Made by a program: the position numbers and the translations under genes
Shown: one piece after another, positions 444-61,059 of the stretch
Numbering within the stretch: the stretch's first letter is position 1
Layout of the letters: each line of letters starts with the position of its first letter
Notes under the pieces: model-generated
What the model saw: the letters and a program-made list of their open reading frames with translations, nothing else
What the model was told of the DNA's origin: nothing
Databases searched by the model: none
IMG/VR virus record: IMGVR_UViG_2579779107_000005
Length of the DNA stretch: 64,000 bases
DNA from: a virus
Taxonomy: Duplodnaviria; Heunggongvirae; Uroviricota; Caudoviricetes
Reading direction: 5' to 3' (one strand)

Positions 444-466
444 CTCCCAGCAATCTCCCAGAATGG
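444..466 (-). promoter_or_regulatory. late-gene upstream motif, two copies (plus-strand CTCCCAGCAATCTCCCAGAATGG)
   Basis: Same TCCCAG(N)AA(A/T)C family found upstream of six other minus-strand late genes. Lies 20-45 nt upstream of the GTG at 425. Confidence 0.4.
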
Positions 467-570
467 TCAGTCCCCCGGCGGAGCGGTTGCTCGACGCCGG
501 GGGACCATTGCAAGAGGAGGAGGGGCCTACTTGCTCTCTCAGGATACTCCCAGGTTCGCCGGAATAGCCA

Positions 571-615
571 GCAAAAGGGAGAGGCCCCCGGCGTGTTGCC
601 GAGGGCCTCTCTCTT
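571..615 (-). terminator. rho-independent terminator after major capsid gene
   Basis: Hairpin GAGAGGCCC-N15-GGGCCTCTC. On the minus strand it is followed by TTTTGCTGG. Sits right after the capsid TAA stop. Confidence 0.5.
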
Positions 616-624
616 AGGTGCTGG

Positions 625-1854
625 TTACGGGGCGTCCGTCCCGGCCGCGAGGGTCGGGAACTGGATCGGGCCGCCGGTGCCGTCCGACCAGATGATGAGG
701 TTCTCGTTCCAGAGGACCGCACCGTTGATGTCGCGCAGGCGGTAGGCCAGCGAGTCGTTCTCGAAGGAGCCCTCGAAGGGGCTGATCGAGCCGCCACCGA
801 CGTACGAGCCCTGCAGGTTCTGCACGCGCAGCTCCGGGGTCTCGTAGCCGCGCAGCTTGAGGAACTCGATGACCGGCCGGCGGGTCGAGCCCGGCGTCGG
901 CACGAGGAACCACGTGCCGTCCTCGATGCGCTCGTGCTCGATGAGCGTCACGTTCGAGAGCGAGGAGTGGTTGTAGCGGGCGCCGTCCTCGACGAAGCCG
1001 CCGTCGACGACGCGCAGCACCTTGCGCTGCATCTGGAAGTCCCAGAAGCGCTTGGTGCCGATCGGCACGAACAGGTTGTACGAGGACGCCTCGCCGATCC
1101 GGTTGCCCAGGACCTTGCGGCGCGAACGCTCGTAGATGGCCTGCTCGACGGCCTCCGGGGAGAGCTTCGCCTTCGCCGGGATGACGGTGCCGTCCGGTGC
1201 CGAGCCGCCGGCGAGCTGCGAGGCGTTGGTCACGGACAGGAGCGCGTCGAAGAACTCCGCGATCTTGCCGTCGACCGACACCGACATCAGCTCGCCCGGA
1301 ATCTGCTCGAAGAAGCCCACGGTGTCGTTGATCTGGGCTTCCCAGGTCCAGTCGAACCGCAGACCGCGCTTCGCGAGCTTCTGGTAGAAGCTCTCGAGGC
1401 CGCCCTTGAGCGAGACGAGCGGGTAGAGCCCGCCCTCGGGGATGATCGGGGCCTCACCGTGCTCGCCGAGCGCGGAACCGCGCAGGAGCGACTGGTTGTA
1501 CTCCGACCCCTCGGGGGTCTCGTCACCCTCGCCCCAGTAGAGCGAGTAGAGGTAGACCGGGCGGAAGTCCTTCACCGTGCGGGTGCCGGCCCAGGCGCCC
1601 AGCTCGTGCACCTCGCGGTCGTACTGGGGCACGAACTCCAGGTTGATTGCGTGGGTGAGGTTGACGGAGGCGTCGGTCGAGACGACAGCCTCGCGGAGCT
1701 TGGCGTCCGCGATGAAGTCGCCCTGCATGGCGGAGCGGAAGAGCTTCTGCGCCTCCTTGACCTTGGCCTTGGTGACGCCGGGCTGCGGGTGCAGACGACG
1801 GTCGAGCGTGAACGCGTTCTCGTACGTCCGCTCCTTGAACTGTGCGAGGGTCAC
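625..1854 (-). CDS. major capsid protein
   Basis: 409 aa ORF. Position in portal-protease-capsid order. Size and composition typical of HK97-fold actinophage capsid proteins. Followed by a strong terminator. Confidence 0.7.
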   Translation of the reverse strand: MTLAQFKERTYENAFTLDRRLHPQPGVTKAKVKEAQKLFRSAMQGDFIADAKLREAVVSTDASVNLTHAINLEFVPQYDREVHELGAWAGTRTVKDFRPVYLYSLYWGEGDETPEGSEYNQSLLRGSALGEHGEAPIIPEGGLYPLVSLKGGLESFYQKLAKRGLRFDWTWEAQINDTVGFFEQIPGELMSVSVDGKIAEFFDALLSVTNASQLAGGSAPDGTVIPAKAKLSPEAVEQAIYERSRRKVLGNRIGEASSYNLFVPIGTKRFWDFQMQRKVLRVVDGGFVEDGARYNHSSLSNVTLIEHERIEDGTWFLVPTPGSTRRPVIEFLKLRGYETPELRVQNLQGSYVGGGSISPFEGSFENDSLAYRLRDINGAVLWNENLIIWSDGTGGPIQFPTLAAGTDAP

Positions 1855-2279
1855 TTGACCACGACTCCGATCTTGACGGGGAGGACGCCGCGGTAGCGGA
1901 AGCCCTCGGGGAGGTTGACCACGCCGAAGCCCGGCGTGGTGGCGTCGTCGACCTTGGTCAGCGTCAGCGTCTCGTCGGCGACGACGAAGTAGACCGGGAC
2001 GCCGGTCTTCTCGGTGCCGGTGGCCCCCACGACCGCGAAGTCGAAGGTGCCGGTCGTCTCGACGGTCGATCGCAGCGCGCCCTGGCCGTTGTCCGGCTGG
2101 CGGATGCCCGAGATGGTCAGCCCGCCGACGAGCTGGACGCTCTTGGTCGAGCCGGGGGTGCCGGAGAGCACGACGCCCGCGCGGCCGTGGTTCATGGCGG
2201 CCTCGCCGGGCTTGACGGCCTTGGTGAAGTCCCAGATTTCCTGGGTGCCGGGGATGCTTGCGTAAACCTGTGCGCCCAT
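1851..2279 (-). CDS. head structural/decoration-like protein
   Basis: 142 aa ORF sandwiched between scaffold/protease and capsid genes with 4-nt overlaps. Gly/Thr/Val-rich beta-type composition. Confidence 0.4.
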   Translation of the reverse strand: MGAQVYASIPGTQEIWDFTKAVKPGEAAMNHGRAGVVLSGTPGSTKSVQLVGGLTISGIRQPDNGQGALRSTVETTGTFDFAVVGATGTEKTGVPVYFVVADETLTLTKVDDATTPGFGVVNLPEGFRYRGVLPVKIGVVVK

Positions 2280-2281
2280 GG

Positions 2282-3205
2282 TCAGAACCTCAGTCCCAGC
2301 GAGTAGCTGTCGTTGTCGGCGCCGGCGTCGAACCGGCGCCCGCTCGCGGCCGGCCGGGCCGCCTCGGTGACGTGCGCGATGGCCTCGTCCTTGATCTTCA
2401 CGGCCTCCGCCAGGTCAGCAGTGATGTCCGCGCCCTCTTCGGCGCGCGCGAGCAGCGCGGCCTCCTGGGCGGGGAGCAGCTCGGCGTCCTTGATCGCCTT
2501 GGACGCTGCGGCGAACGCCTGGACAGCCTCCTTGACGGTCGGGGCCTTGGGCTCGTCGCCCGCGGCAGCCGCTGCGGCCTCAGCCGCCTGCTTCTGGTCG
2601 GAGACGAACGCGAGGACCGGGGCGAGAACCTTGGCGACGGCCTTCTCGGCCGCCTCCTCAATCTGCTCGGGGGTCATGTCCTTCTCTCTCTCGTCTGCCG
2701 AGGCGGCAGTACGTCTGTGGTTCTCGAACAGCGCCAGGGCGCGCTCGGAAAGCTTGTCGGCGAGACCGGAGCCTTCGAGGCCCTCTTCGCTCACCAGGTC
2801 GACGGAGTTGGTGCGGTGGTAGACCAGCTCGGTGATGTTGCCCGCCTCGTCCATGCGCCCCATGGCGTAGATCGAGAGGCCCGCGAGCGGGGCCACCTCG
2901 TCGACGAGTTCCTGGTGGCGCGGGAGGACGTGCAGCTCGGCGACGAGTGCGCCGTTGGCGCCCTCCTCGGGGTCCCAGTACGCGCCCTCGGGGTAGTGGC
3001 CGAGGATGTCTCGCGGGTCGCGCTTCCAGTCGTGGTTGATGTACGCCTTGGTGCCGGCGGGGAACGCGAGCGGGCCGTACTGCTTGAGCATCTCGGCGCC
3101 GTAGAAGCCGCTCGAGCCCTGGCCGGGGACGGCGAGGACTGCGCGCCAGCGACCGTCAGCGGTCTTGGCCGCCTGGGCGGTCTCGCAGAGCAGAATGTCC
3201 TTCAC
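2282..3205 (-). CDS. scaffolding / prohead protease-like protein
   Basis: 307 aa, GTG start at 3205. C-terminal half is Ala/Glu-rich coiled-coil (AAEAAAAAAGDEPKAPTVKEAVQAFAAASKAIKDAELLPAQEAALLARAEE), typical of scaffold. Lies between portal and capsid. Confidence 0.5.
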   Translation of the reverse strand: MKDILLCETAQAAKTADGRWRAVLAVPGQGSSGFYGAEMLKQYGPLAFPAGTKAYINHDWKRDPRDILGHYPEGAYWDPEEGANGALVAELHVLPRHQELVDEVAPLAGLSIYAMGRMDEAGNITELVYHRTNSVDLVSEEGLEGSGLADKLSERALALFENHRRTAASADEREKDMTPEQIEEAAEKAVAKVLAPVLAFVSDQKQAAEAAAAAAGDEPKAPTVKEAVQAFAAASKAIKDAELLPAQEAALLARAEEGADITADLAEAVKIKDEAIAHVTEAARPAASGRRFDAGADNDSYSLGLRF

Positions 3206-3224
3206 GCAGCCAACTCTAAGGTAG

Positions 3225-3247
3225 CTCCCAGGAAACTTCCAGAAAAC
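3225..3247 (-). promoter_or_regulatory. late-gene upstream motif, two copies (CTCCCAGGAAACTTCCAGAAAAC)
   Basis: Tandem TCCCAGGAAAC / TCCAGAAAAC. Lies 20-45 nt upstream of the GTG start at 3205. Confidence 0.45.
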
Positions 3248-3256
3248 GCGAATCCG

Positions 3257-4810
3257 CTACTTCGAGACCTTGTCCGATCGCAGGTCGTTGCCCTTCGCGC
3301 CGTTGTCGCCGGTGCCCTTGTTCTTGCCCTGCTCGGGGTTGGCGGCCTGCTTGCCTGCGTCGCCTGAGGCGCCCTGGTCGGCGGGCGCGGCGGAGGCCTT
3401 CGCCTTGGCCTGGAGCTTGAGGCTCTTGAGGTTGTTCGGGCTCATCCAGCCGTCCGGGACTTCGTTGCCGGTGATTTCGAGCAGCTCCGAGATGCGGGCT
3501 TCGATCGGCTCGGGGTTGAACAGCCCGCTATTCAGCGCAAGGATCAGCGCCTGCAGCTCGCGGTACTGGTCCGCGGCGTCGTCGAGAGAGGAGAACGTGA
3601 CCTGCAGCTTCTCCGCGTCGGCACCCATCCAGAGGAGGATGCGACGGTCGAAGTCGATGTGGCGCTGGCGGCGAGCCTCCATGGCGAGTCGCGTGGGCAG
3701 GTCGAGGGTCGAGGCCGAGCCGTAGCTCGAGCCCGCGGAGCCGGGGTCGGACGACAGGGAGACGACGGAGACCTCGAGGGCGGCGGCGACGATCGCAAGG
3801 AGGCTGCGGCCGGAGTCGAAGTCGTAGCCCTTGCCGGCGGTCGGAAGTGGCACCAGCGCGTTCGCGCCGATGAGCGTGGAGCCCGCCTCGGAGGGCTGCG
3901 CGATGCGGGCGGCGACGTTCTCGGTCTCCTTCTTGGTGCCGGCGGCCACCTGGAAGGCGAACTGCGCCATGGCGTCGGACATGACCTTGCCCGACATGAT
4001 GAAGTCGCGGTAGACCTTCGCCCAGGCGAACGCGGTGAGCGCGTCGGGGACGCCGAACGCCCAGCCGACCTGCGAGTTGACGTGCATGTCGAAGATCACT
4101 CGGGCGTCGGGGGCCTTCTCACCCTCCTTGACGATGACCTGGAAGCCGGGCCTGTTCCGGCGGTCGTATGCGAGGTCGGTGTAGTGCCACTCCTTGACGG
4201 CCTTCGGGGCGCCGGTCTGGGCGTCGACGGTCGAGTAGTCGTCGTAGTCGATCCGGTAGGCGATGATTTCGTCGGGGCGTCGCGGGTTCACCTGGATCGC
4301 GCCAACGTACTCGAGCGACCAGGGCTCGAGGGAGTGGTCTGAGGGGTCGCCGAGCACGAGGTAGATGCTGTCGGTGTAGAGGGCGCTCTCACGCTCGTCA
4401 TGCGCCTGGGCGCCGAAGAAGGCGTGCTGGTTCAGGGGATCGCGGACGTACTTCGCCGTCTGCTTCTTGATGCCGGAGCCCTCGGGGAGCGCGTCGTCGT
4501 TGTAGTGGATGCCGCCGCGCCAGATGTTGTTGGTGCGAAGGCGGAGACCGCGCTGCATGTGGACGTTCCCGAGAGCGTTGCGCATCTTGCGCGACCATTC
4601 CTTGAGCTGGTCGAGGTCAGGCCCGGTGGACACCTCGGAGGTGCCGAAGACCTTGGACCAGCCGACGTCCTCCGCCTCGAGCATGGCGTTCCAGCGGAGC
4701 TGCTCGCGGAGGCCCTGCGATACCGCCTGCTCTCGGTCGAGCACCGCCTCGAGGGCGGCAAGGCGGTCTTCCTGGAGCACCAGCTCGGCTACAACGACTT
4801 CTTCACTCAC
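3257..4810 (-). CDS. portal protein
   Basis: Large ORF directly downstream of TerL. ORF track extends to 4984, but the likely start is the GTG (VSEEVVVAELV) at 4810 after the TerL stop at 4852. About 517 aa. Position and size fit a portal. Confidence 0.7.
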   Translation of the reverse strand: MSEEVVVAELVLQEDRLAALEAVLDREQAVSQGLREQLRWNAMLEAEDVGWSKVFGTSEVSTGPDLDQLKEWSRKMRNALGNVHMQRGLRLRTNNIWRGGIHYNDDALPEGSGIKKQTAKYVRDPLNQHAFFGAQAHDERESALYTDSIYLVLGDPSDHSLEPWSLEYVGAIQVNPRRPDEIIAYRIDYDDYSTVDAQTGAPKAVKEWHYTDLAYDRRNRPGFQVIVKEGEKAPDARVIFDMHVNSQVGWAFGVPDALTAFAWAKVYRDFIMSGKVMSDAMAQFAFQVAAGTKKETENVAARIAQPSEAGSTLIGANALVPLPTAGKGYDFDSGRSLLAIVAAALEVSVVSLSSDPGSAGSSYGSASTLDLPTRLAMEARRQRHIDFDRRILLWMGADAEKLQVTFSSLDDAADQYRELQALILALNSGLFNPEPIEARISELLEITGNEVPDGWMSPNNLKSLKLQAKAKASAAPADQGASGDAGKQAANPEQGKNKGTGDNGAKGNDLRSDKVSK

Positions 4811-4839
4811 GCCAGCGATCTTACAGTCAGTTCTCAGGG

Positions 4840-4852
4840 TTTTCCCAGAAAC
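4840..4852 (-). promoter_or_regulatory. late-gene upstream motif (TTTTCCCAGAAAC)
   Basis: Motif abuts the TerL stop and lies about 30 nt upstream of the portal GTG. Confidence 0.4.
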
Positions 4853-6669
4853 TAAAGAGGGGTTCCCACTGCGTTCCGTCGGATGTTGAGCATCTCGAAG
4901 GGGTCGCGCATCACCGTGGTGCCCTTCTTCATCTTGTTCACGGGGTCGTCGAGCCCGGGAAGGAGGGCTGAGGCGTAGATGCACGTGTCTGCCGCGTCGG
5001 GCGACTTGACGCCTCGCTTCTTCATTGACTCCTTGCTCTCGATGAGCATGGCGTTGTAGGGCGGCGCGACCTCGTAGAGGATGTCGCCGAGCTGCTCGAG
5101 GAGTAGCGCATCCTCGGGATCGAGGTCGATGAGCCCCTTCTCCATGCGGTCGCGCATCTTGTCGTACTGGAAGGCGCGATCGTTCTTGTGCACGTTGGGA
5201 TCGGGCGCCGAGCGCGAACCGAGCATCGAGATGATGGTGTACGGCGGATTGGCGCCGGCGACGGAGAACAGGGCGTCGATGAGGCCCTGGCCGATGCCCG
5301 AGCCGTCGATTCGGACCTGCTGGACGCCCAGGTTGACGGCGTGCTGATGGATGAGCGTGGCCTGGCCGACCGTGTGCAGGAGTCCGCCGTTGGGGTCGTT
5401 CTCCACGCGGTCGGTGAAGGGCTTGCCCCGGAAGCTGTCGACGTAGCGAATGCGCGCGCCTTCAACATCGGAGACGTTCCCCAGCTCGCTCGTGACGTGG
5501 CCGTCATCGTGGACGGTCTCGACCCACTCGTACATGAGGCCGGACTCGGAGAGGTAGAGGAAGGTCGAGTCGCCGGACTCTGCGCGGGCGACGTCGACGC
5601 CGAGGAAGCGCCGGCTATCGTCCGGGATGAAGCACTCGGCGTCCCGAGCCTTGCCGAGCGCGTACTCCGAGAAGAGGTTGTTGCCCTCGTCGTAGGCGAA
5701 CATGCCGAGCACCCGGGAGCGGAAGCGCGGGGAGTCGACACCGTACTCGAGGCGCTTCTCCTCGACGTAAGTGGGGCCGGAGAGCGAGCGCAGTGCCTCG
5801 GCGGAGAGCCCGAGGCCGAGCGGCAGGAGGTCGTGTTCGGCCTTGCGCGGGCAGTCGTCGGCGCAGAGCCCGCCTCCGTGGAAGTTGGGGGAGTCGAGCA
5901 CCGAGATAGCGTGCAAATCCCAGGAGACGCCGTAGGGTTCGCCGGTCTTCTCGTTGATCTTGCCGGAGAAGATGGCACCCAGTCGCGACGCTGGGTTCGT
6001 CGGGTTGGCGATCAGCAGACGGCGCGAGGTGTCGTTCGAGGTGATGTTGGAGAGCGAGTCGATCATCGCCTCGTTCAGGCCCACCGCCTCGTCGCCGATG
6101 GCGAGGACGTACTGGGCATGGATGCCCTGGAAGGCGTCCTCCTTATGGTCCGGCGGCTTGCGACCCTGGGCGATGAGCACGCCGAGCGAGGTCTTCCACT
6201 CGTCGTTGCCGGTGATGTAGCCGGGGAGCTGGTGGTCCGGGTAGCCGGCGGTGTCCTTGCCCTCGGCCTGCAGGCGCTTGAACTCCTTGTGGCGGTCGAT
6301 CGACTTCGCCATGAGTCCACGGATTTCGCGCCAGAGGATCGCCTTGACCTGTGCGGCTGATGGAGCGGTGGTCGCCACGAATGCGGAGCCGAGCGGGTGC
6401 ACGTCGATCCACCAGCACACAAGCACGGCGGAGAGGAACGACTTGCCGACACCGTGGCCGGCGCGCACGGCGACGGACTTCTTCTTGCCGATGGCGATGG
6501 CGTAGGCAATCTCCTGCTGCTTCCACCACAGGTCGACGTCGAGGATGTCCTTGGCCCACAGCACCGGGTCGGTGATGTACTTCGCCTTGCGTGCGTCGGC
6601 GCGCAGACCGTCCTCGACGTGGGGGAGGAGGTCTGTGAGCCAGCCGGCGTCGGCGACCGCCATGCTCAC
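4852..6669 (-). CDS. terminase large subunit
   Basis: 605 aa. Walker A (VRAGHGVGKS) and Walker B-like (VLAIGDEA) ATPase motifs, plus a C-terminal nuclease-type acidic region. Classic TerL position upstream of portal. Confidence 0.85.
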   Translation of the reverse strand: MSMAVADAGWLTDLLPHVEDGLRADARKAKYITDPVLWAKDILDVDLWWKQQEIAYAIAIGKKKSVAVRAGHGVGKSFLSAVLVCWWIDVHPLGSAFVATTAPSAAQVKAILWREIRGLMAKSIDRHKEFKRLQAEGKDTAGYPDHQLPGYITGNDEWKTSLGVLIAQGRKPPDHKEDAFQGIHAQYVLAIGDEAVGLNEAMIDSLSNITSNDTSRRLLIANPTNPASRLGAIFSGKINEKTGEPYGVSWDLHAISVLDSPNFHGGGLCADDCPRKAEHDLLPLGLGLSAEALRSLSGPTYVEEKRLEYGVDSPRFRSRVLGMFAYDEGNNLFSEYALGKARDAECFIPDDSRRFLGVDVARAESGDSTFLYLSESGLMYEWVETVHDDGHVTSELGNVSDVEGARIRYVDSFRGKPFTDRVENDPNGGLLHTVGQATLIHQHAVNLGVQQVRIDGSGIGQGLIDALFSVAGANPPYTIISMLGSRSAPDPNVHKNDRAFQYDKMRDRMEKGLIDLDPEDALLLEQLGDILYEVAPPYNAMLIESKESMKKRGVKSPDAADTCIYASALLPGLDDPVNKMKKGTTVMRDPFEMLNIRRNAVGTPL

Positions 6670-7196
6670 TGCTGCTCGATCCTCTTCTCGACCGTCTCGA
6701 CGGCGGCCGGGAGCTTGAGCAGGAAGACCTCCTGGACCTCGGCGGTCGGGACGTCGTGACGACGCGCCAGCTCGTCGGCGGCGGCGAGCATGGCGACCTG
6801 GATCGCCGCGAGCATGATCCGGGCCTGGCCTTCGCGGACCTGGTTGGCGAGCTTCTCCGGGTCGATGCGGTTCTTGTTGATCTGGTCCTGCTTCATCTTG
6901 AGCGCCTTGAGCGCCGTGTTGATGTGCTGGACGCTTCCGGCTTCGATTCCCGTGCGCAGGCTCGAGATGATGTCGTTGATCGACTCGAGGAGGAGCTGTT
7001 CCTGCTCGAAGTACGTGAGCCAGTTGCGATTCTCGAGCAGGTCTCGGACGCGCTGTGCGGCCTGCTCAGGCGACACCACGCCATTGACGGCCTGCGACAT
7101 CTCCTTGGGGCTGAGGCCGTCAGAGGCGGCGCGCAGGAGCTTCCGGTCGAGGGGACCGTTCGCGAGACCGCGCTCGTACTTCTGGACTTCTGCCAC
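6666..7196 (-). CDS. terminase small subunit (putative)
   Basis: 176 aa ORF overlapping the TerL start by 4 nt. First gene of the late operon. Helical composition. No specific motif, so called by position. Confidence 0.45.
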   Translation of the reverse strand: MAEVQKYERGLANGPLDRKLLRAASDGLSPKEMSQAVNGVVSPEQAAQRVRDLLENRNWLTYFEQEQLLLESINDIISSLRTGIEAGSVQHINTALKALKMKQDQINKNRIDPEKLANQVREGQARIMLAAIQVAMLAAADELARRHDVPTAEVQEVFLLKLPAAVETVEKRIEQQ

Positions 7197-7216
7197 GCGA
7201 CTACTCTAGGGTGGCT

Positions 7217-7237
7217 CTCGGGAAACTCCCAGGAAAC
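7217..7237 (-). promoter_or_regulatory. late-gene upstream motif, two copies (CTCGGGAAACTCCCAGGAAAC)
   Basis: Lies 20-40 nt upstream of the TerS start at 7196. Confidence 0.45.
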
Positions 7238-7245
7238 GGGTGGCG

Positions 7246-7290
7246 AGAGCCCCGGTCGACTTGAACTCGGCCGGGGCTCTCGTTTTGGGC
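7246..7290 (+). terminator. hairpin plus T-tract (terminator-like), T-tract used as IS target
   Basis: GAGCCCCGG-N15-CCGGGGCTC followed by TCGTTTTGGG. The T-tract is duplicated at 10152-10166 as the IS target-site duplication. Confidence 0.35.
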
Positions 7291-7293
7291 TTG
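7279..7293. repeat. target-site duplication, left copy (CTCGTTTTGGGCTTG)
   Basis: Identical 15-mer at 10152-10166. Each copy directly abuts a terminal inverted repeat of the IS481-like element. Confidence 0.6.
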
Positions 7294-7487
7294 TGTCATG
7301 TCGCAGGAGATGGGTGACGGTTCTGTATCAGGACATCGGTGACAGTTTGGGTGGTCTTGGTGGTGACACTTCATGGCGGGGGCGCTGGTTGTTCTCGTGA
7401 CTCCGGCATTGCAGCGGCCATGAGGGAGGGGTGCGAGCAAAGGCTCGCACCCCTCCGGAATCGTCTATTCGGTTTTCACCGTCTTGG

Positions 7488-51380: not shown

Positions 51381-51478
51381 TGCAGTGCGTCCATCGGGTC
51401 GGTCGGGACGAAGTAACCGCCCGCGGTCTCGTTGCTGTTCTCGTTCATGGCCTCGTAATTCTCTCGCGGTTCTGCCCG

Positions 51479-53197: not shown

Positions 53198-54037
53198 TCA
53201 GAGACCGAGGGCCTTCCAGGTCTTGTCGCCCACGATCCCGTCGACGTAGAGGCCGGCGCGACGCTGGAACTCCCGCACCGCGGCGTCCGTGTTCGAGCCG
53301 AAGTCACCGTCGAGCACGAGGTTGCCAGCGTAGAGCGGGTAGACGGTCTTGAGTCGGGTCTGCAGGTCCTTGACGTCCTGACCCTTCGAGCCCTTCTTGA
53401 TCTGCGGGCGACCAGAGGCGGTGGGCGCGGGGTTCGCGACCGCCGGTGCACCGCCGAGGGCGGCCTCGGACTTCGGGCCAAAGAGGCCGTCGACCGTGAG
53501 GCCGTTCTTGCTCTGGAAGTCGCGTAGGGCGGCAACCGTGGTGGCGCCGATCTTGTCGTCGACGGCGAGCTTGTAGCCCTTGGCGTTGAGCTTGGTCTGC
53601 ACCCCGGCGCCGTAGCCGGGCGTGATGGTGGAGCCAACGATGACCGTGCGGACCCAGTGCCAGCTCTCGCCGGACGACTTGCCCTGCACGTTGTCGAAGC
53701 CGAAGCGGGCGGCGTTCTTGTCGAGCCACGCTTTGACGCCGGCGCCCATGTAGACGTCGACGGCGCAGCCGAGGCCGTGGTTGGAGAAGCCGGGGGTCGC
53801 GGCGACGGGGCCGCCCGCCTTCGCGCGACGGTCGGCCTCCCGCTGTCCGGCGAGGTCGCGGTAGCAGGACGGTACGCCGTCGTCTGCCGCGGGGCGGAGC
53901 GTGATGCCGTCCGAGGCTGCAGCCGCCACCATCGCGGCCCACTGGGCAGCCGTCTGCCGCTCGAGCACCTGCCCGGGTGCGCCGTTAGCCGCCTGCACCA
54001 GTTCGGATGCGGGAATCTGTCCGTTCGCGTACGTCAC
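53198..54037 (-). CDS. endolysin: M15 (VanY-like) peptidase with two peptidoglycan-binding domains
   Basis: SNHGLGCAVDV zinc-binding motif plus downstream His. Two PG_binding_1-like repeats (TVAALRDFQSKNGLTVDGLFGPKSEAAL; DAAVREFQRRAGLYVDGIVGDKTWKAL). GTG start at 54037 with GGAAGGA RBS. The N-terminal half of the 438-aa track ORF is an artefact. Confidence 0.75.
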   Translation of the reverse strand: MTYANGQIPASELVQAANGAPGQVLERQTAAQWAAMVAAAASDGITLRPAADDGVPSCYRDLAGQREADRRAKAGGPVAATPGFSNHGLGCAVDVYMGAGVKAWLDKNAARFGFDNVQGKSSGESWHWVRTVIVGSTITPGYGAGVQTKLNAKGYKLAVDDKIGATTVAALRDFQSKNGLTVDGLFGPKSEAALGGAPAVANPAPTASGRPQIKKGSKGQDVKDLQTRLKTVYPLYAGNLVLDGDFGSNTDAAVREFQRRAGLYVDGIVGDKTWKALGL

Positions 54038-54072
54038 GAGTATCCTTCCGTCACCAGGGAGTCTACAGCGCA

Positions 54073-54096
54073 CTCCCAGGAAACGCCCAGAATCAG
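54073..54096 (-). promoter_or_regulatory. late-gene upstream motif (CTCCCAGGAAACGCCCAGAATCAG)
   Basis: Lies 35-55 nt upstream of the endolysin GTG and abuts the upstream gene's stop. Confidence 0.4.
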
Positions 54097-54641: not shown

Positions 54642-54667
54642 TTAGCGGGCTCCTTTCGTGGCGTTGA

Positions 54668-57358
54668 TTACTGTTCGGCTGCGTACACGCCGCCGTCGAG
54701 GGAGAACCACACGCCTGCTGCGGCGTTGCGGCTAATGACATTGCCGTCAGGGCCGACATCGACGCGCGCGATCGTCCCATTCGAGAATCGCGGGAGAATG
54801 GGGCCGCCGGCGCCTCCAGACAGGGCACCCTTGGGCCGATTGCCGACCTTCGCGGTGTAGAGCGCCGTGGCGGCTGTGCCGACCTTGAGCAGGCCGCGCG
54901 TGTGCACTCGGCCGTTGACGTTGACGTACGCGCCCTGAGTGAAGAGCGTGCCGTAGTTGGATGCGCCATTGAGGAATGCCACCGTGTTCCACGGGAGCGA
55001 GTCAGTCGCGGCCGTCGCGACGACGAGCCCGCCCAGTGAGTAGACGATTCCAGCGGCGCGGCCACCGATCGACGTGATCTTCCAGTTGAGCTGGTTGTTC
55101 GACGCCGGCGCGATGCCCCACCCCGCGATACCGCCACCAGAGCTGGTAGCGAGGTGGTGGATTTGCAAGCTCGGCTTCAATGGGGCGGAGCCAAGGTCGA
55201 TTACTGGAGTGTTGTCGGCGGAGACGGCAGGACCCACGACGGCGCCGCGCCACCAGGCGAAGCCGTACGGGTCGATCCAGTACGCGGCGGTGGCATCCTG
55301 TCCCTCGGTGCCCGCATTCGACGGGTTACTCCACCCGGTCATGAACTTGGCGCCAGTGCCGGTCGATCCCGCGGGGAGAATTTCTGTCCAGGTGGCGACA
55401 CCGGCGGCGGGAAACGCGATTCCGCTGAGGCTGACGTATTGACCAGCGGTGATACTTCCCGAGCTGATCCACCACACCTCGCCGTTCGGGTAGACCTTGA
55501 TCCGACCTAGCGCGTCGTTCCATGCAATAGGAGCGGTAAGGGTGAAGTCCGGCCGGAAGCCGTCTGGCAGCGTGAAAATGCGGTAGTCGCCGGCGGTGCT
55601 CGTGGCAAAACCAACCAACCCCTCGAGGATTACGATGCCGTCGGGGGTCTTGGTGAAGCACGCCTCCTTCCATGTGTTGCCGTAAGAGCCGAACTGGCTG
55701 CTGAGAAGACCCATCGCAGACAGCGTGATCTGCGTGGAGGTTGACTGGATGAGCATGCCTTGAATGAGAAGGTCACCGCCGCTGGTGCGTGCAACGACCA
55801 CGCGGTCGCCGGGCTGTGGCGAGTAGGGGAACATCCAGGGGATGCCGTAGCTGGTGAAGGTACTGGTGCCATCGAACTTCACGCGCGGCAGTCCGGCAGT
55901 GTAAAAGGGGTCGATGGTGGCGAACCGGAGGTCGGCGAAGTCGTGCACGCTCACCTCGTCGAGCACCTTCTTGCCGTCGTTCTGGAACATCTGTCCCTTG
56001 ACGTCGACCATGCCCTGCTCGCGGTACTTGCCGATGCCGAGGCCGAGGGAGGCGTCCCAGTGCATGAAGATGGCCCCGGTGGCGACGGTCGACGAGAGCG
56101 CCGTCGTGGCGAAGATGTCGATGACCTCGATCAGCACGTCCCACGAGTGGGTGATGTCGTACGTGCCGACGATCTTCGTGACGGCGAGGGCGATACCCGT
56201 GCCGGAGCCGGATGCGACCTGAGTCCAGACGCTCGTCCCGTGCTGCCGGGTCGAGAGTCGGTAGGTGACGGAGTTCTTCTCCGTGCTCGAAGGCTTGAGC
56301 GATGTGGCGCTCGCCTTGAGGATGGCCTTGATGTACGTGCCGTCATCGTTTGGGGTGCCGTCGACCAAGACCCGGGTGAGGCTGAGCGCGGTTGTGTCGA
56401 TGGAGGGAGGGGCGTATGGCAGCACCGTGACGGTCGTCGAGGTGCTGCCGGTGCGACCGCGGGAGTCGGTGACGGTTGCGATGACGGTGACGGTGCCTGA
56501 GCTGTTGATGATGCCGGTGGTGCCGGTGGCGGCGTTGATGGTCTGTCCATCGACGGTGATCTTGTAGGCGGTGATCGTCGATCCGTATGCGCCGGCCGCC
56601 CCCTGGATGCCCAGGTTGAGCCTGGAGGCGCCCTGAACGTATCCGCCGACCGCGTTTGCTACGGCCGCGACCGCTTCTGAGGCGCTCACTGACCCGATCG
56701 TGGGTGCGACAGTGGCGGGAGCAGTGAGGGTGAAGTTGATCGCCGTGGTGCCGATCAAGGTGCCGCCGTTGTAGGTGTAGGTGGTGATGGTGCCGACACC
56801 GCTGGTGGCGTTGGGGATGGCGGTCAAGAGGTCGAGCGGGGGAGTCCAGGACACCGACGCACCCACCCCACCGGCGATGGTGCCCGACTTGCTGCCGAAG
56901 GCGTAGTTGATCGTGTGGGTGAAGGAGGCGCTGGCCCGGTTGGTGTTGATCGTGACCGCGGAGCCCGCCGCGATCGGATTCGCCGAGAGCGTTGAGTTCG
57001 AGGCGCGCGGGATCGTGGGGATGCCGAGCCCCTGTGAGATATCGACCGGGCCGCCGTAGGTGCTGGTGCCGGTCGCATTGGTGTGCGCGCTCACGTTCAG
57101 GGTCCCGTAGGACCCGTCCGCGTTGTGGTAGACGTTGAGCGTCTGGTTCAGGATGTCGATGCTCGTCCCGTTGAACGAGAACGAGCCGGAGCCGTAGGTG
57201 CTGACAGAGAAGCCGATGCCGGAGGCGTTGCCGCTCCAGCCGCTGTCCGAGTAGGCGTACAGGTGCACGTTGACGGTCGAGAAGTTGCCCGAGACGTTCT
57301 GCGAGATGAGCGAGACGTCGAGCTGGTATGTCGCGTGCGCGGTCTTGATGATCGCCAT
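54668..57358 (-). CDS. minor tail / tail fibre protein
   Basis: 896 aa. Gly/Thr/Ser/Ala-rich beta-repeat protein in the tail module. Confidence 0.55.
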   Translation of the reverse strand: MAIIKTAHATYQLDVSLISQNVSGNFSTVNVHLYAYSDSGWSGNASGIGFSVSTYGSGSFSFNGTSIDILNQTLNVYHNADGSYGTLNVSAHTNATGTSTYGGPVDISQGLGIPTIPRASNSTLSANPIAAGSAVTINTNRASASFTHTINYAFGSKSGTIAGGVGASVSWTPPLDLLTAIPNATSGVGTITTYTYNGGTLIGTTAINFTLTAPATVAPTIGSVSASEAVAAVANAVGGYVQGASRLNLGIQGAAGAYGSTITAYKITVDGQTINAATGTTGIINSSGTVTVIATVTDSRGRTGSTSTTVTVLPYAPPSIDTTALSLTRVLVDGTPNDDGTYIKAILKASATSLKPSSTEKNSVTYRLSTRQHGTSVWTQVASGSGTGIALAVTKIVGTYDITHSWDVLIEVIDIFATTALSSTVATGAIFMHWDASLGLGIGKYREQGMVDVKGQMFQNDGKKVLDEVSVHDFADLRFATIDPFYTAGLPRVKFDGTSTFTSYGIPWMFPYSPQPGDRVVVARTSGGDLLIQGMLIQSTSTQITLSAMGLLSSQFGSYGNTWKEACFTKTPDGIVILEGLVGFATSTAGDYRIFTLPDGFRPDFTLTAPIAWNDALGRIKVYPNGEVWWISSGSITAGQYVSLSGIAFPAAGVATWTEILPAGSTGTGAKFMTGWSNPSNAGTEGQDATAAYWIDPYGFAWWRGAVVGPAVSADNTPVIDLGSAPLKPSLQIHHLATSSGGGIAGWGIAPASNNQLNWKITSIGGRAAGIVYSLGGLVVATAATDSLPWNTVAFLNGASNYGTLFTQGAYVNVNGRVHTRGLLKVGTAATALYTAKVGNRPKGALSGGAGGPILPRFSNGTIARVDVGPDGNVISRNAAAGVWFSLDGGVYAAEQ

Positions 57359-58914
57359 TAGAGGGCCTTCACCACCGTTCCAGTGCCGTATCGCTCAAGC
57401 TTGTGGTTGCCCAGGATGACCTCCTCGCCGACGAACGACCGCACGAACATCTGCCCGGAGTTCCAGTACGAGACGGCGGAGCCGTTCTCGAGCATCTCGA
57501 TGCGGTCGTTGCGGAGCGCGAGCTGGAAGCGGGAGTTGGGATTGCTGATGACGGCGCCCTGGGGGCCGAAGGCGTAGACCGTCTGCATGTCTGCGAGCGT
57601 GCCGGCGGTGGCGTTCGCGTCGTCGGCGACGTCCTGCACGCGGCCGGCGATGATGGTCACGGTGTCGTTTGCGGAGATGTCGAGGTCGTTGCCGATGGTC
57701 GGCGACAGCTCGTTGACGGTGATAGTGCCCGCGATGAGCTGGTCGGCTCCGAGAGTGTGGGCCGTGATGAGGCCGCCGTCGAGAGTTCCGACCGTCGCCT
57801 TGCCGAGGTCGATCGACGCGATGACCTCATGGGAGACGGTCTGCGGAACCCATGTGGCGCCGTCCCACTGCCACTGTCCGATGATCGCCAGGGTCGAGTC
57901 GCGCTGGAACCAGAGGTCGCCCTCGTTCGTGCCATCTCGGTCGGGGGAGGTGATGGCGGTGGTCAGATGGTTCCCGCCCAGCGTGATGACGTCGGGCGCC
58001 AGGTCGGCGGCGGTGACGCCCATGACCGTGACGATGCCCGGCGCGCTCGGTGCCGTCTCGGTTCCGAGGCTGTCGACGGCGATGAAGCGGACCTCATAGT
58101 CCTCGCCGACGGTGAGGCCGCCGATCTGGATGCTGCCGCCCCCGCGCATGAGCACGCCGCCCATGCGCGTCCAGTCGTCGGCGCCGCGGGGCGAGACCTC
58201 GGCGTAGATGTAGCGGAACTGCGAGGGGGGCAGCACACCGTTGAATGAGCCGTACCATCCTGCGACCACGACGCCGGCCGCCGAACTCAGCACGGGGCCG
58301 GGCGGAGTCGCCATGTCCTCGAGGGTGGCCGGAATTGTGACGCGCCAGTCCGTGCTCAGCGCGCTCGAGACGCCGTAGGCCGAGATGGAGGCGACCTTGA
58401 CCTGGTAGTCGACACCCGGCTGCAGGCCGTTGACCTGAATCTGTCCGTTCGGAGAGTTCCCCAGCATGAGGTACGACGGGCCGGGGTCGACCGTGGTGCC
58501 GTCGCCGGGGTCCACGACGTCCTGGTGGTACACGCGCACCCACGCCTGGTAGTTCGTCGGGATGAGCGGGTTGCCGTCGACGTCGAGGTCGTTCGGCATG
58601 ATCGAGACGTCGAGGCGACCGTGGGGCGCGCCCTGCTGGTCGAAGTACGTCGACGGGGCGGCGACGAAGCTGTCATGGTCGATCGCCAGCGGGATGCGGT
58701 TCTTCTCGTACTCCGCGGCGAGCTGCGCTGCCGCCGAGTTGGCGGCGGCGGTGATGGCGTTTCCCGACGAGCGGAGCGCGGTCTGCGAGTTGTTCGCGAG
58801 CTGCTGCCGGTACGTGTCCTCGTCGCGCATGAAGCGCTCGACCCTGCGCACCCACGGCTGCGCGGAAACCGGCAGGCCGTTGTCTGTGAGCACCTCGGAG
58901 GACATGCTCAACAT
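57358..58914 (-). CDS. minor tail protein with FN3-like repeats
   Basis: About 518 aa from ATG 58914 (MLSMSSEVLT). The ORF track extends to 59028, through the upstream motif. Repeats of the type VDYQVKVASISAYGVSS / EDYEVRFIAVDSLGTE. Confidence 0.5.
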   Translation of the reverse strand: MLSMSSEVLTDNGLPVSAQPWVRRVERFMRDEDTYRQQLANNSQTALRSSGNAITAAANSAAAQLAAEYEKNRIPLAIDHDSFVAAPSTYFDQQGAPHGRLDVSIMPNDLDVDGNPLIPTNYQAWVRVYHQDVVDPGDGTTVDPGPSYLMLGNSPNGQIQVNGLQPGVDYQVKVASISAYGVSSALSTDWRVTIPATLEDMATPPGPVLSSAAGVVVAGWYGSFNGVLPPSQFRYIYAEVSPRGADDWTRMGGVLMRGGGSIQIGGLTVGEDYEVRFIAVDSLGTETAPSAPGIVTVMGVTAADLAPDVITLGGNHLTTAITSPDRDGTNEGDLWFQRDSTLAIIGQWQWDGATWVPQTVSHEVIASIDLGKATVGTLDGGLITAHTLGADQLIAGTITVNELSPTIGNDLDISANDTVTIIAGRVQDVADDANATAGTLADMQTVYAFGPQGAVISNPNSRFQLALRNDRIEMLENGSAVSYWNSGQMFVRSFVGEEVILGNHKLERYGTGTVVKAL

Positions 58915-58921
58915 TCTGTCA

Positions 58922-58937
58922 GGGAATTCCCAGAAAC
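58922..58937 (-). promoter_or_regulatory. late-gene upstream motif (GGGAATTCCCAGAAAC)
   Basis: Lies 10-25 nt upstream of ATG 58914. Contains the GGGAATTCCC palindrome. Confidence 0.4.
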
Positions 58938-61037
58938 CTAATGGGTACGCAGCGGCGAGGAGGCGAACTGCACGTCGGTGCGCGCCTCCCACACAGCATC
59001 GAAGGCTTCGAATGTGAGGTCTTGCCACACGGCGTCGAAGTCGTCCATGGTCGTGTCGCCGGTTGCCGTGACCTGGACGCCACCCTGCGAGCTGGCTGCG
59101 CTGGTGATCCGGTAGAAGGCGTCGCCGTGTCGGAATCGGGCACCGGCGAGTTCGCCGATGGGCAGGCCGGGGTCGGCGAAGTTCCCGCTGAGGGTGACGA
59201 CCGGCTCGGCGATGGTGGGGATCGTCTCGCTGGCGACACGATCGGCAGTTGCGCGACTCTGGACGTGCTTCGAGTCGATCGAGACCGTCTCATTGGGGGC
59301 GTCACCCTCCGCGAGCCCGGTGTCGTAGGTCAGCTTCGACGGGTGATCGATGATGCCGCTCGCGCGGATGCGCAGGCTTGAGTAGAAGGTGTTGTCGCCA
59401 GACTGCATCGAGATGGCGAACGGGGCGAGGCTCTTCTCGTTCTGGCCGGAGGTGATGGTGATGATGAGTGTGTCGGCGTTCTCGCCGATCGCCACCGTCA
59501 CCGAGCCGCCGAGGCGTTCCCAGGCTGCGGGGTCAAGGGTCTCGACGCTGCCCGTGTTCTGCGTGGTGGTGGTGTCGTTCGTCCCCTGCCCGACGACGGT
59601 GTAGACCGAGCCGTTCGCGCCGTCGCGCGGGCCAACCTCCTTCATGCACTTGGGCTGCTCGACAGACGTGAGGGAGCCGAGGATGGGGACCTCGATCTTG
59701 GTGATGGCGTTGGCGTCGACCGTCAGAATCGGAGCATCCTCGTTCCATCCGGCAGGGGTGAGAATGTCGAGCGTGTCGTCGTACGAGGCGGGAGGGTAGA
59801 CGAGCGCGTTGGTCTCGTGAGTGGAGCCGTAGTTGCGGACCTCGAGGGTCTCGGCGAGCTGAGACTCGTCGCTGGTGATGCTGGGGCGCTCCAGGTTGTC
59901 GCTGTCGATGAAGCGCTCGCGCGGCGGCCGAAGGAACACTGCGTCGCCTCGATCGCTCATCTCGACGCCCTGGACGGCGAGGAACTCCTTGAGCACGGTG
60001 AGCAGGTTGTCCTTGAAGCCGTGGACGAGGACGGGTCGCTCGGCGATCGAGAGGTCGACATTCAGTGGCCGGGACACTCCAACGGCGGCGAAGAGCATGG
60101 CGACGAAGCCGTCGAGGCTTCCGGTGAAGGGGTCGACGCGGCGCACTACGTTCAGTCGGGCAGCGACCGAGTAGCTCGTGATCGAGACGGTGGTGCCGTC
60201 GCTCGAGGGGCTGTCGATGCGTCCCTGGACAACCGGAGCACCCGCGTCGAACACGGTCAGCTCTCCGCCGCCGAGCAGCATGGATTCGTCGAATTCGGCC
60301 ACGCCGACCTGGACCGTGGTCGCGCCACCCGAGGTGTCGTTGGGGGTGAGTGGGGTCACGTTCTCCGTGATGGCGTAGGTGGTGAGGTTCTCCACCGTGT
60401 AGTACGGGCCGGGCTCGTTCGTGAGCGTGCGATTGGTGCGGATGGAGCGGGAGGCGTTCGTGGCACCCTCCCAGTAGTAGAACGCGCCCTCGGTCGCGGC
60501 TGAGGGGCTGTCTCCGTAGAACGGTGGCATCCCTGCGCCCATGATCGAGCCGAGCTTGACGTCGATCTTGTCGTCGACGGCACCTCCGTCAACGCGGAGC
60601 AGGAGGCCGTAGTTCGGCGCCGCGCCGATCGTCAGGGTGGAGACGCGCTCGACCCAGCCGCCGCTCGCCGTCGCGAACGAGGCGCCGGTGGGATTGTCGG
60701 CCGCGAGTTGGCTGGTGCCCTTGCGGAGGCCAAGCGTGCAGCCGGCCTGCGGGGCACTGGTACGCACCCAGAGGCGGATGTCGAAGGTCCCAGCGGGGAG
60801 GTCAACTCCCGTGAGGTTCACACCGATGAGGGCGGGGCCGGCGGCTGCCCGGATGAAGCGCAGGTAACGCTCTTCTTCGTCTTGCGCGAGCGACGGCGCG
60901 CCGAGTGTGGAGCTGAGTGTCACCCAGAGTCCTGCTCGGTCGGTGGCGTGAGGTGTGGGGAGGTAGTTGAGGGCAAGGGGCGCGCTAAGTGCGTAGAGCG
61001 GCAGGGGCGGCTGCTGAATGCCGAGAGTGACGGTCAT
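58938..61037 (-). CDS. minor tail protein (Tal-like position)
   Basis: 699 aa ORF directly downstream of the Dit-like gene. Confidence 0.5.
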   Translation of the reverse strand: MTVTLGIQQPPLPLYALSAPLALNYLPTPHATDRAGLWVTLSSTLGAPSLAQDEEERYLRFIRAAAGPALIGVNLTGVDLPAGTFDIRLWVRTSAPQAGCTLGLRKGTSQLAADNPTGASFATASGGWVERVSTLTIGAAPNYGLLLRVDGGAVDDKIDVKLGSIMGAGMPPFYGDSPSAATEGAFYYWEGATNASRSIRTNRTLTNEPGPYYTVENLTTYAITENVTPLTPNDTSGGATTVQVGVAEFDESMLLGGGELTVFDAGAPVVQGRIDSPSSDGTTVSITSYSVAARLNVVRRVDPFTGSLDGFVAMLFAAVGVSRPLNVDLSIAERPVLVHGFKDNLLTVLKEFLAVQGVEMSDRGDAVFLRPPRERFIDSDNLERPSITSDESQLAETLEVRNYGSTHETNALVYPPASYDDTLDILTPAGWNEDAPILTVDANAITKIEVPILGSLTSVEQPKCMKEVGPRDGANGSVYTVVGQGTNDTTTTQNTGSVETLDPAAWERLGGSVTVAIGENADTLIITITSGQNEKSLAPFAISMQSGDNTFYSSLRIRASGIIDHPSKLTYDTGLAEGDAPNETVSIDSKHVQSRATADRVASETIPTIAEPVVTLSGNFADPGLPIGELAGARFRHGDAFYRITSAASSQGGVQVTATGDTTMDDFDAVWQDLTFEAFDAVWEARTDVQFASSPLRTH

Positions 61038-61038
61038 G

Positions 61039-61059
61039 TCCAGAATTCTCCCATGAAAC
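61039..61059 (-). promoter_or_regulatory. late-gene upstream motif variant (TCCAGAATTCTCCCATGAAAC)
   Basis: Directly upstream of ATG 61037. Reverse-strand GGGAGAA lies 9 nt from the start. Confidence 0.35.

Follow-up and report, generated by a model that had tools for sequence, protein, structure and literature searches.

Tandem 11-bp repeats at predicted late-gene promoters of a Leifsonia aquatica prophage and its relatives

RESULTS

Gene organization of the prophage

The subject of this study is a tandemly repeated 11-nucleotide (nt) element located upstream of structural and lysis genes in a stretch of 64,000 nt from the IMG/VR virus record IMGVR_UViG_2579779107_000005 (Caudoviricetes); this whole stretch is termed the window below. 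The window, which has a G+C content of 67%, was assigned to a prophage of Leifsonia aquatica on the basis of one protein that is 100% identical to an L. aquatica protein at NCBI encoded on a 638-kb contig. A gene call based on codon usage yielded approximately 103 genes. The leftward block (positions 20591 to 3, minus strand) contains nucleotide-metabolism and small genes and a DndB-family gene, followed by the genes for the putative TerS, the putative TerL, the portal protein, the putative scaffold protein, and the major capsid protein (Phage_capsid_4), and by one more gene, here called the post-capsid gene. The early and replication block (22051-51001, plus strand) includes genes for an SNF2 helicase, a primase/helicase, and NAD salvage, and the tail/lysis block (64000 to 51060, minus strand) comprises the genes for the tape measure protein, tail proteins, a tail-collar protein, and an endolysin with VanY and PG_binding_1 domains, as well as further genes. 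The portal was identified by tblastn and the capsid protein, DndB, endolysin, collar, and others by Pfam, whereas the labels TerS, TerL, and scaffold are putative, being assigned solely from size and position. The head, tail, and lysis genes, for which expression late in infection is predicted, are referred to as late genes.

A tRNA-Arg(CCT) gene approximately 0.7 kb outside position 1 marks the left end of the prophage, and a host ABC-transporter gene comes next (contig L014, 11855-13021). The attachment site is thereby placed between the head and tail modules, such that it splits the late region. An integrase gene is found at the equivalent place in the related phage L004. When the window was extended, the contigs found ended either within the tape-measure gene or where the prophage ends; for the part from the head-tail connector to the tape measure, the relatives L004, L021, and L022 stand in.

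A tandem element in the gaps before late genes

A first-pass annotation of the window had listed seven copies of a TCCCAG-containing element upstream of late genes and had noted that several of them were tandem. All seven are present, with the first units starting at positions 465, 3246, 4852, 7236, 54094, 58937, and 61058 of the minus strand, and they precede the genes for the putative TerS, the portal, the putative scaffold, the post-capsid gene, the endolysin gene, and two tail genes. The tandem pairs are real, but they are not limited to several copies: every site consists of two head-to-tail 11-nt units, and an eighth pair, which had been missed, is located at 557-536. The unit consensus on the sense strand, derived from the pooled sites described below, is tTTyCTGrGAG, with the core C5-T6-G7 being almost invariant. 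All eight pairs are on the minus, i.e., gene-sense strand, where they occupy short intergenic gaps in the blocks for head, tail, and lysis.

The exact core TCCCAGRAA occurs five times in the window versus 0.61 occurrences expected. With a position weight matrix (PWM) of the tandem pair, whose training set left out two of the eight window sites, the eight sites score 21.9 to 32.3, all on the minus strand, versus 14.5 for the next best position on either strand. Dinucleotide shuffles of the window gave only 0.03 hits scoring ≥18 and none scoring ≥21.9, to be compared with the eight sites observed. When the PWM was trained only on related phages, no position of the plus strand scored ≥12, and the 11 such positions of the minus strand were all located within the eight sites. 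A single unit with two mismatches allowed is matched 13 times versus 12.5 times expected, i.e., at chance level in the window; the signal resides in the tandem arrangement and its context. In agreement with the first-pass annotation, which had not seen the element in the early blocks, PWM scans detected no pairs between 7.3 and 53 kb and none on the plus strand. A weak pair at 20857, situated in a divergent noncoding region of 1.46 kb, scored 14.5, has no −10 box, and was not counted. Restriction-site avoidance or recognition and a function as packaging sites were considered as roles of the motif and rejected.

Architecture of the predicted promoters

The first-pass annotation had overlooked a −10 hexamer of the type TAnnnT at a fixed distance of 6 to 7 nt from the pair. 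Specifically, five of the eight window sites share the layout unit 1, unit 2, 6 to 7 nt, TAnnnT (class A, regular), and in four of these a further 6 to 7 nt lead to a GTG start codon. The predicted promoters, all on the minus strand, are named after the genes they precede. The TerS promoter (7194-7236) is composed of the units TTTCCTGGGAG (7236-7226) and TTTCCCGAGAG (7225-7215), a gap of 6 nt (ccaccc), the −10 hexamer TAGAGT (7208-7203), another gap of 6 nt (agtcgc), and the GTG at 7196-7194, which is the earliest start codon that this open reading frame (ORF) could use and which lacks a Shine-Dalgarno (SD) sequence. In the portal promoter (4808-4852), the first unit GTTTCTGGGAA (4852-4842) abuts the TAG stop codon (4854-4852) of the putative TerL gene and is followed by AACCCTGAGAA (4841-4831), 7 nt (ctgactg), the hexamer TAAGAT (4823-4818), 7 nt (cgctggc), and GTG (4810-4808). 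The promoter of the putative scaffold gene (3203-3246) has the units TTTTCTGGAAG (3246-3236) and TTTCCTGGGAG (3235-3225), a gap of 6 nt (ctacct), TAGAGT (3218-3213), a gap of 7 nt (tggctgc), and GTG (3205-3203), and that of the post-capsid gene (gene 3-425; promoter 423-465) has CATTCTGGGAG (465-455) and ATTGCTGGGAG (454-444), 6 nt (ctggcc), TAGAAT (437-432), 6 nt (gaggcc), and GTG (425-423). These four class A promoters are predicted to give leaderless mRNAs. Orthologous sites of both the TerS and the portal promoter are present in the relatives L001, L002, L006, L009, L010, and L011. The fifth regular site, the endolysin promoter (54035-54094), likewise belongs to class A and is leadered: its units GATTCTGGGCG (54094-54084) and TTTCCTGGGAG (54083-54073) are separated by 7 nt from TAGACT (54065-54060), and the predicted start, approximately 7 nt past the −10 box, would result in a leader of about 15 nt with the SD sequence GGAAGGA before the GTG at 54037-54035. 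An orthologous leadered site is found in L021 at 17516.

The remaining three window sites have a different geometry. At the tail gene 57358-58905, the pair GTTTCTGGGAA (58937-58927) and TTCCCTGACAG (58926-58916) is accompanied by a −10-like CAGAAT (58918-58913) that shares 3 nt with unit 2 and is separated by 7 nt from the ATG (58905-58903; class C, site 58903-58937); this variant geometry is kept in L022 at 14357. At the tail gene 58938-61037, a triple of units is present (site 61035-61069, class C), namely, GAAGCTGTGAG (61069-61059), TTTCATGGGAG (61058-61048), and AATTCTGGACA (61047-61037), with a −10-like GAGAAT (61050-61045), a gap of 7 nt, and ATG (61037-61035); it has no counterpart in L021 or L022, in which the two genes overlap. 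The eighth pair (536-557; GAACCTGGGAG TATCCTGAGAG) closely follows a palindrome and the terminator of the capsid gene and has no −10 box at the regular spacing, its second unit itself starting with TATCCT. The terminator is an intrinsic-terminator-like hairpin (579-611, minus strand) of 14 pairs followed by CCTTTTGCTG, directly 3′ of the capsid gene and arranged identically in the relatives; consequently, the post-capsid gene needs a fresh promoter.

Two features adjoin these sites. The stretch that separates the next late promoter from the capsid-gene terminator holds a conserved pair of hairpins (window 470-535, minus strand; L001 14220-14290; also L004, L010, L002, and L009), the first of which exposes a C/U-rich, anti-SD-like loop (GGCCCCUCCUCCUC). 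Compensatory changes affect 10 of 18 predicted pairs across six phages, no Rfam family matches the hairpins, and they could represent a small RNA, a leader, or a termination element. Furthermore, the DndB-family gene and the TerS gene are neighbors in all relatives, and in the window an insertion sequence (7488-10091) with an rve-family transposase gene (8634-10091, plus strand) and the ORFs 7488-7715 and 7702-8634 lies between the DndB-family gene and the TerS late promoter, which is intact despite this insertion.

Conservation in related phages

Related phages were obtained via portal protein homologs and their contigs; a megablast search of window positions 1 to 8000 against GenBank phages gave no match, and portal-based locus searches in IMG/VR and JGI metagenomes confirmed no relative. 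The set comprises a Frigoribacterium prophage (L001, with its tail region L021) and the metagenomic contigs L002 to L012 and L022, with portal proteins 55 to 70% identical to that of the window. In eight relatives, the window-trained PWM detected 26 pairs on the sense strand and a single one on the antisense strand, with 0.13 expected per strand. As the first-pass annotation had suggested checking, the pairs are kept at orthologous gaps, i.e., before the TerS, portal, scaffold, and post-capsid genes; L004, L021, and L022 carry further pairs before the gene preceding the tail-tube genes, the tape-measure gene, tail genes, and lysis genes. Each excerpt of 12 to 22 kb contains three to five sites. 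Pooling the 8 window sites with the 26 sites of the relatives results in a set of 34 sense sites versus 1 antisense site, all intergenic. The notion of a late-gene-specific signal thus holds with respect to position, as the pairs occur at structural and lysis genes, on the sense strand only in the window, and in relatives as well; the accompanying functional options, which are weighed in the Discussion, fared unevenly.

The fixed spacing is likewise a property of the pooled set. TAnnnT follows unit 2 in 24 of the 34 sites, with a gap of 6 nt in 18 and of 7 nt in 6 cases, the background chance of this hexamer at any of six offsets being 0.8%. In 22 of these 24 regular sites, the ATG or GTG of an ORF of at least 129 codons is located 6 to 7 nt past the −10 hexamer. 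An extended −10 motif (TGn) and a TTGACA-like −35 box are each found in none of the 24 regular sites. Measured against a canonical sigma-70 promoter, the regular sites therefore possess the −10 hexamer at the right distance from the predicted start and lack both the −35 hexamer and TGn; no sigma-70-type −35/−10 promoter was found in window positions 1 to 8000. The possibility that the TAG of the −10 hexamer serves as an in-frame stop codon was discarded, as it is out of frame at most sites.

The start codons point to leaderless transcripts. An SD-like core is present 4 to 10 nt upstream of 65 of the 102 called window genes. TAnnnT at 6 to 7 nt before the start codon is found in only 4 of the 102, namely, the TerS, portal, scaffold, and post-capsid genes, none of which has an SD sequence. 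No start codon earlier than this GTG is available in three of the four ORFs, and the TerS N termini of the window and L001 align from residue 1. A −10 hexamer ending at this distance from an ATG or GTG is the hallmark of leaderless mRNAs, and the four promoters are predicted to yield such transcripts, which are common and efficiently translated in actinobacteria (PMC4633059). With the start codon taken as +1, the two units span approximately −40 to −19. An early gene (33677-33958, plus strand), which shares a similar segment (…DAGA(T/S)K(M/A)ALRRV…) with the early gene 32434-33006 (plus strand), is preceded by TAGAAT, 8 nt, and ATG without an SD sequence; it may also be leaderless and has no unit pairs.

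Sister lineages and unrelated occurrences

The phage L008 (portal 44% identical to that of the window; contig of 68.8 kb) is devoid of unit pairs, yet the same late gaps (6780, 9990, 11640, 14200, 14990, 18270, and 20160) contain −10 boxes whose starts are leaderless or preceded by a short leader, and six of these seven boxes carry the extended −10 motif (TGn-TAGAAT type). Upstream of its TerS gene, tRNA-like sequences were observed. The more distantly related L017 has the DndB and TerS genes in common with the window, and its TerS gene is preceded by TAGAAT, 6 nt, and ATG, with a 12-bp palindrome (see below) upstream. Judging from the layouts of L008 and L017, the wider group is characterized by numerous internal late promoters, most of them leaderless. 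Because the sequence upstream of the −10 box is lineage specific, it behaves as expected for the binding site of a lineage-specific regulator.

An exact-pattern scan of IMG/VR for two joined units returned six loci, none with the regular promoter geometry. The matches in L016 and L019 look like a 19-nt duplicated segment, those in L017 and L018 belong to the distant relative with units in its early control region, and those in L015 and L020 stem from an unrelated element of 47% G+C with iteron-like arrays. In L020 (equivalent to L015 on the opposite strand), positions 4640-4740 and 4900-4975 hold such an array of about seven 11-nt units (TTAyCTGAGrG), which are very similar to the window units, and three more units (AATTCTGGGAG TTTCCTGAGAG TTTTCTGTGTG) just downstream of a TTGACA-17-TATAAT promoter. 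BLAST detected no proteins common to L020 and the window, and the similarity of the units may reflect convergence or a widespread DNA-binding specificity.

Candidate regulators

Three window proteins can be put forward as candidates for a regulator acting at the units. The gene at 46049-46498 (plus strand) encodes a basic protein of 149 amino acids (pI 8.6), for which AlphaFold yielded an all-helical model with two helix-turn-helix (HTH)-like motifs and a predicted local distance difference test (pLDDT) value of 86. Its C-terminal part resembles sigma-70 region 4 and HTH_23 at sub-threshold level. A search of the PDB by sequence gave no match, and Foldseek gave nothing significant. In an exhaustive profile search, nine relatives were found among 1.8 billion representatives, one of them in the Frigoribacterium prophage, i.e., the family is limited to this phage lineage; consequently, there is no annotation to borrow. 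The candidate DndB-family protein of approximately 460 amino acids (10372-11754, minus strand) is encoded directly upstream of TerS in the unit-carrying relatives, which is the usual position of an Ltr-type activator gene, with the insertion sequence intervening in the window; the gene is absent from L008, which lacks the repeats. As a third possibility, a WhiB-like protein (37214-37540), below the Pfam cutoff (E value, 1.2e-3), might act as a sigma-binding partner.

Other repeats and genes

A second motif, the 12-bp palindrome TTAGCnnGCTAA, has 16 hits at ≤2 mismatches versus 1.4 expected. Its starts in the window include positions 564, 20608, 21582, 22440, 22781, 26121, 26270, 32381, 35883, 37566, 41538, 43308, 50998, and 52862, and it also occurs in L001, L004, L008, L012, and L017. 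Most copies of the palindrome are found at borders between blocks or in short gaps within the early block, often 3 to 5 bp upstream of TAnnnT, as at 41538, in L004 at 13660, and before TerS in L017 in the form TTAGTCCACTAA. It is probably the operator or a promoter element of a dimeric regulator of early and middle genes. The divergent region at 20592-22050 (1.46 kb), which contains the weak unit pair at 20857, has no ORF with a coding signal, a lower G+C content, and two TTGCCCGCTAAAT-like copies; the region probably serves as the main site of early control and may contain noncoding RNAs or the origin.

Among the genes, those for NAD salvage (38830-41222) encode a nicotinamide/nicotinate phosphoribosyltransferase (NAPRTase E value, 3.5e-37; NAMPT_N), preceded by a protein with a weak phosphoribosyltransferase domain, and they may constitute a counter-defense pathway for NAD+ reconstitution. 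A tRNA gene (43396-43483, plus strand; Rfam RF00005, 49.7 bits) lies in the early/replication block. A gene for 79 amino acids (11964-12203, plus strand), which is oriented opposite to the leftward block between the dNMP-kinase and DndB-family genes, has kept its position and orientation in L001, L004, L006, L009, and L010. A 28-codon mini-ORF (51362-51448, minus strand) has similar copies in L004 (8513-8590), L010 (8573-8647), and L021 (20852-20932); in L004 and L010 it occupies the portal-scaffold gap just upstream of the unit array and looks like a small mobile or duplicated segment.

DISCUSSION

Comparison with known repeat-based regulatory sites

The closest parallel to the unit pairs is the afs box of Streptomyces. 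Two direct repeats of 11 bp make up this box, which extends from −40 to −19 with the center at −29.5 and overlaps the −35 region; through it, a SARP dimer activates RNA polymerase containing sigma-HrdB (PMC10936776). Like the afs box at afsS, which is bound by SARP/AfsR, and like OmpR/PhoB-type boxes, the pairs described here are 11-bp head-to-tail repeats combined with a poor −35 region, a housekeeping sigma factor, and an actinobacterial host. The 11-bp period is found in all 8 window sites and the 26 sites of the relatives; the span from −40 to −19, numbered from the predicted start point, applies to 24 of the 34 sites, and 10 deviate. Differences concern the distance from the 3′ repeat to the −10 box, which is 8 bp in SARP promoters and 6 to 7 bp in the window phage, as well as the unit sequence, the occurrence in a phage, the number of at least eight promoters in one late block, and the mostly leaderless mRNAs predicted. 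Moreover, Pfam detected no winged-helix activator of the Trans_reg_C type, with or without BTAD, and no SARP or OmpR-type domain among the window proteins.

Direct repeats at the terS promoter are also shared with phages employing activators of the Ltr superfamily (RinA, ArpU, and LtrA to LtrC) or TP901-1 Alt, the corresponding sites being the pair at 7236-7215 and its orthologs. Ltr proteins are small, basic, and faintly sigma-like; they bind the repeats and switch on morphogenesis and lysis genes (PMC3753634). The 149-amino-acid candidate of the window is likewise basic and bears a faint likeness to sigma region 4. However, the Ltr phages rely on a single late promoter, situated upstream of terS and directly preceded by the activator gene, whereas the window has many late promoters with at least eight sites, the gene upstream of terS in the relatives encodes the DndB-family protein of about 460 amino acids rather than a small basic activator, and the 149-amino-acid candidate is encoded 39 kb away. 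No RinA or ArpU model matched the window proteins that were scanned.

With the stoperators of cluster A mycobacteriophages, the pairs have in common that they are short and asymmetric and occur in many copies with one orientation in short intergenic gaps. Start-associated sequences of cluster K mycobacteriophages are a further case of a repeated asymmetric motif near start codons. Stoperators, which are orientation biased and bound by a monomeric two-domain repressor (PMC9283540), are single sites of 13 to 14 bp that are found genome-wide, at the early promoter as well, and have no fixed link to a −10 box, whereas the window has 22-bp pairs at late genes only, mostly locked to the −10 box. The Microbacterium phages of cluster EC possess an 18-bp asymmetric motif in about a dozen copies at a fixed short distance upstream of start codons (PMC9224216). 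The motifs of clusters EC and K differ from the units in sequence, lie upstream of or include the ribosome-binding site, and are associated with structural and nonstructural genes alike; their function is unproven.

Activation from the repeats and alternative readings

We regard it as very probable that the pairs are promoter-associated DNA elements of the late genes. The more specific proposal that they are binding sites for a phage-encoded late activator, taking the place of the −35 box, is the one toward which we lean, judging from the sequences. The absence of −35 boxes and TGn, the strict spacing across non-orthologous promoters, the orientation bias of 34 to 1, and the restriction to late genes together argue for activation via a defined contact with RNA polymerase. 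According to this proposal, a regular promoter would consist of two head-to-tail 11-bp units, a gap of 6 to 7 bp, and a TAnnnT hexamer of the housekeeping-sigma type located 6 to 7 bp before the start codon, such that RNA polymerase would start at the A or G of ATG or GTG and produce leaderless mRNAs; the endolysin promoter and some tail promoters would give short leaders with a normal ribosome-binding site. With the extended −10 motif also absent, the two units at about −40 to −19 would replace the −35 box. A phage DNA-binding protein made earlier in infection would bind both units, either as a head-to-tail dimer or by means of two DNA-binding domains, and recruit or adapt the host sigma-A holoenzyme. 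Head, tail, and lysis genes would thereby be switched on together from many internal promoters, which would also restart transcription past terminators, e.g., behind the capsid gene. Two functions offered in the first-pass annotation, a binding site for a late activator and a segmented late-promoter element, fit the data and are effectively one reading, given that the pair lies 6 to 7 nt from the −10 box. As to the protein, it is conceivable, albeit somewhat doubtful, that a family unrelated to known activators, represented by the 149-amino-acid protein with two HTH motifs or the DndB-family protein, acts as a SARP-like substitute for the −35 box by binding the tandem 11-bp units at −40 to −19 and drives at least eight internal late promoters with leaderless head, tail, and lysis mRNAs in Microbacteriaceae.

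A number of observations weigh against activation, and part of them would fit better with units that are operators of a phage repressor. Promoters with only a −10 box can be active on their own in actinobacteria, and activation may thus not be needed. In addition, scans of essentially all window proteins with Pfam, PHROGs, and NCBIfam revealed no member of the sigma, SARP/OmpR, RinA/ArpU, or antiterminator families, although many of the proteins were scanned as concatenated chunks, which weakens E values; and in L017 the unit pairs are confined to the divergent early control region, with none at late genes. The position of the units relative to the −10 box varies at the 10 of 34 pooled sites that deviate from the regular geometry. 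Specifically, the scaffold promoters of L002, L004, L009, and L010 have the array TTGACTGGGAG TTTCCTGTGAG TATGCTGTGAA cGTG, which reads as a canonical promoter TTGACT-N16-TATGCT-N6-GTG with three units in a register shifted by 6 bp, so that the units overlap canonical −35 and −10 boxes; with TTGAC(T/A), these four are the exception to the missing −35 box. At window sites 58937 and 61058 and in L022 at 14357, an nAGAAT box overlaps unit 2 and is followed by 7 nt and ATG, and the pair behind the capsid terminator (window 557), which is kept in L001, L004, and L010 and inverted in L009, has no regular −10 box. One rigid contact between activator and polymerase cannot account for all of these registers, which a repressor or roadblock would tolerate better. 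Such a repressor would silence intrinsically active −10-only promoters of late genes during lysogeny or at an early stage of infection, being bound over the −35/spacer region or, at variant sites, over the −10 box, and may also act as a polar roadblock. The operator-like position of the three similar units downstream of TTGACA-17-TATAAT in the unrelated L020 and the temperate nature of the phage, whose prophage end is situated at a tRNA-Arg gene, are in line with this reading, and precedents among actinobacteriophages are the stoperators (PMC9283540) and D29 Gp36, a small repressor of downstream genes that has GC-rich direct repeats as its binding sites (PMC12266134). Nevertheless, we consider repression rather unlikely, since a simple occluder requires neither the strict spacing of 6 to 7 bp at 24 sites in several non-orthologous promoters nor the 34:1 orientation. 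Furthermore, all 24 regular promoters lack the −35 box and TGn, whereas the repeat-less lineage keeps TGn, and the units are absent from the early region, which has a different palindromic motif at its promoters; repression would therefore call for another repressor that is specific to late genes.

The protein acting at the units might also be a phage sigma-like subunit that recognizes them as a −35-type element, or a phage protein that remodels the host sigma factor (sigma appropriation). This idea draws on the CTGGGA core of unit 1, located 18 bp upstream of the −10 box, on the sub-threshold matches of the 149-amino-acid candidate to sigma-70 ECF region 4 (E values, 0.011 to 0.12) and Sigma70_r4_2 (E value, 0.024), and on the recurrence of sigma factors among its fold matches, which are, however, weak (Foldseek E > 0.4; TM score, 0.3). 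Some Microbacterium phages indeed pair a phage sigma factor with the asymmetric 18-bp motif upstream of genes (PMC9224216). We judge it improbable nonetheless, as no Sigma70_r2 domain or full sigma factor was detected in the window scans, the −10 box is of the housekeeping TAnnnT type, and a lone −35 element would need no duplication at an 11-bp period. Action of the motif in the RNA of read-through late transcripts, be it as an extended SD sequence, for processing, or for loading of an antiterminator, was also among the earlier suggestions and appears highly improbable. The GGGAG portion is purine rich and SD-like, and its distance to the ATG at site 61058 is 10 nt, which is a borderline spacing and the sole such case; moreover, the units would be contained in read-through transcripts from upstream promoters. 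At the regular sites, however, the GGGAG of the proximal unit ends 18 to 20 nt short of the start codon, which is too great a distance for an SD sequence, and with the −10 box 6 to 7 nt before the start codon, transcription is predicted to start at the start codon itself, which leaves the motif upstream of the start point and outside that mRNA; an antiterminator site is unlikely for the same reason. The spacing is fixed with respect to the −10 hexamer, i.e., a DNA signal, direct repeats cannot pair with each other to form a hairpin, no Rfam family matches the units, and other genes use an ordinary GGAGG at 5 to 10 nt.

Implications for late-gene control

Phage late promoters with regulator-binding repeats are a known kind of regulatory system. 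No description of this motif or these phages was found in the literature, only analogous motifs in other actinobacteriophages. What is new, as predicted from sequence, is an SARP-like geometry without an SARP protein, the presence of at least eight promoters within the late block, and leaderless mRNAs for core virion genes. The element fixes the start codons of TerS, portal, scaffold, and neighboring genes and marks late genes in unannotated relatives, and it could supply a phage-inducible promoter/regulator pair for Microbacteriaceae, including plant pathogens such as Leifsonia and Clavibacter. Little is understood about how late genes are controlled in actinobacterial phages, and the lineage described here offers a clean and testable case with a 22-bp element and a predicted start at the start codon, for which natural controls exist in the form of sister lineages having an extended −10 motif or a palindrome in place of the repeats and of the same units in shifted registers within the lineage. 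If the units are indeed activator-binding sites, the phage would use an SARP-like bypass of the −35 box at many promoters within a late block that is usually drawn as a single operon, and its core virion genes would be translated from leaderless mRNAs.

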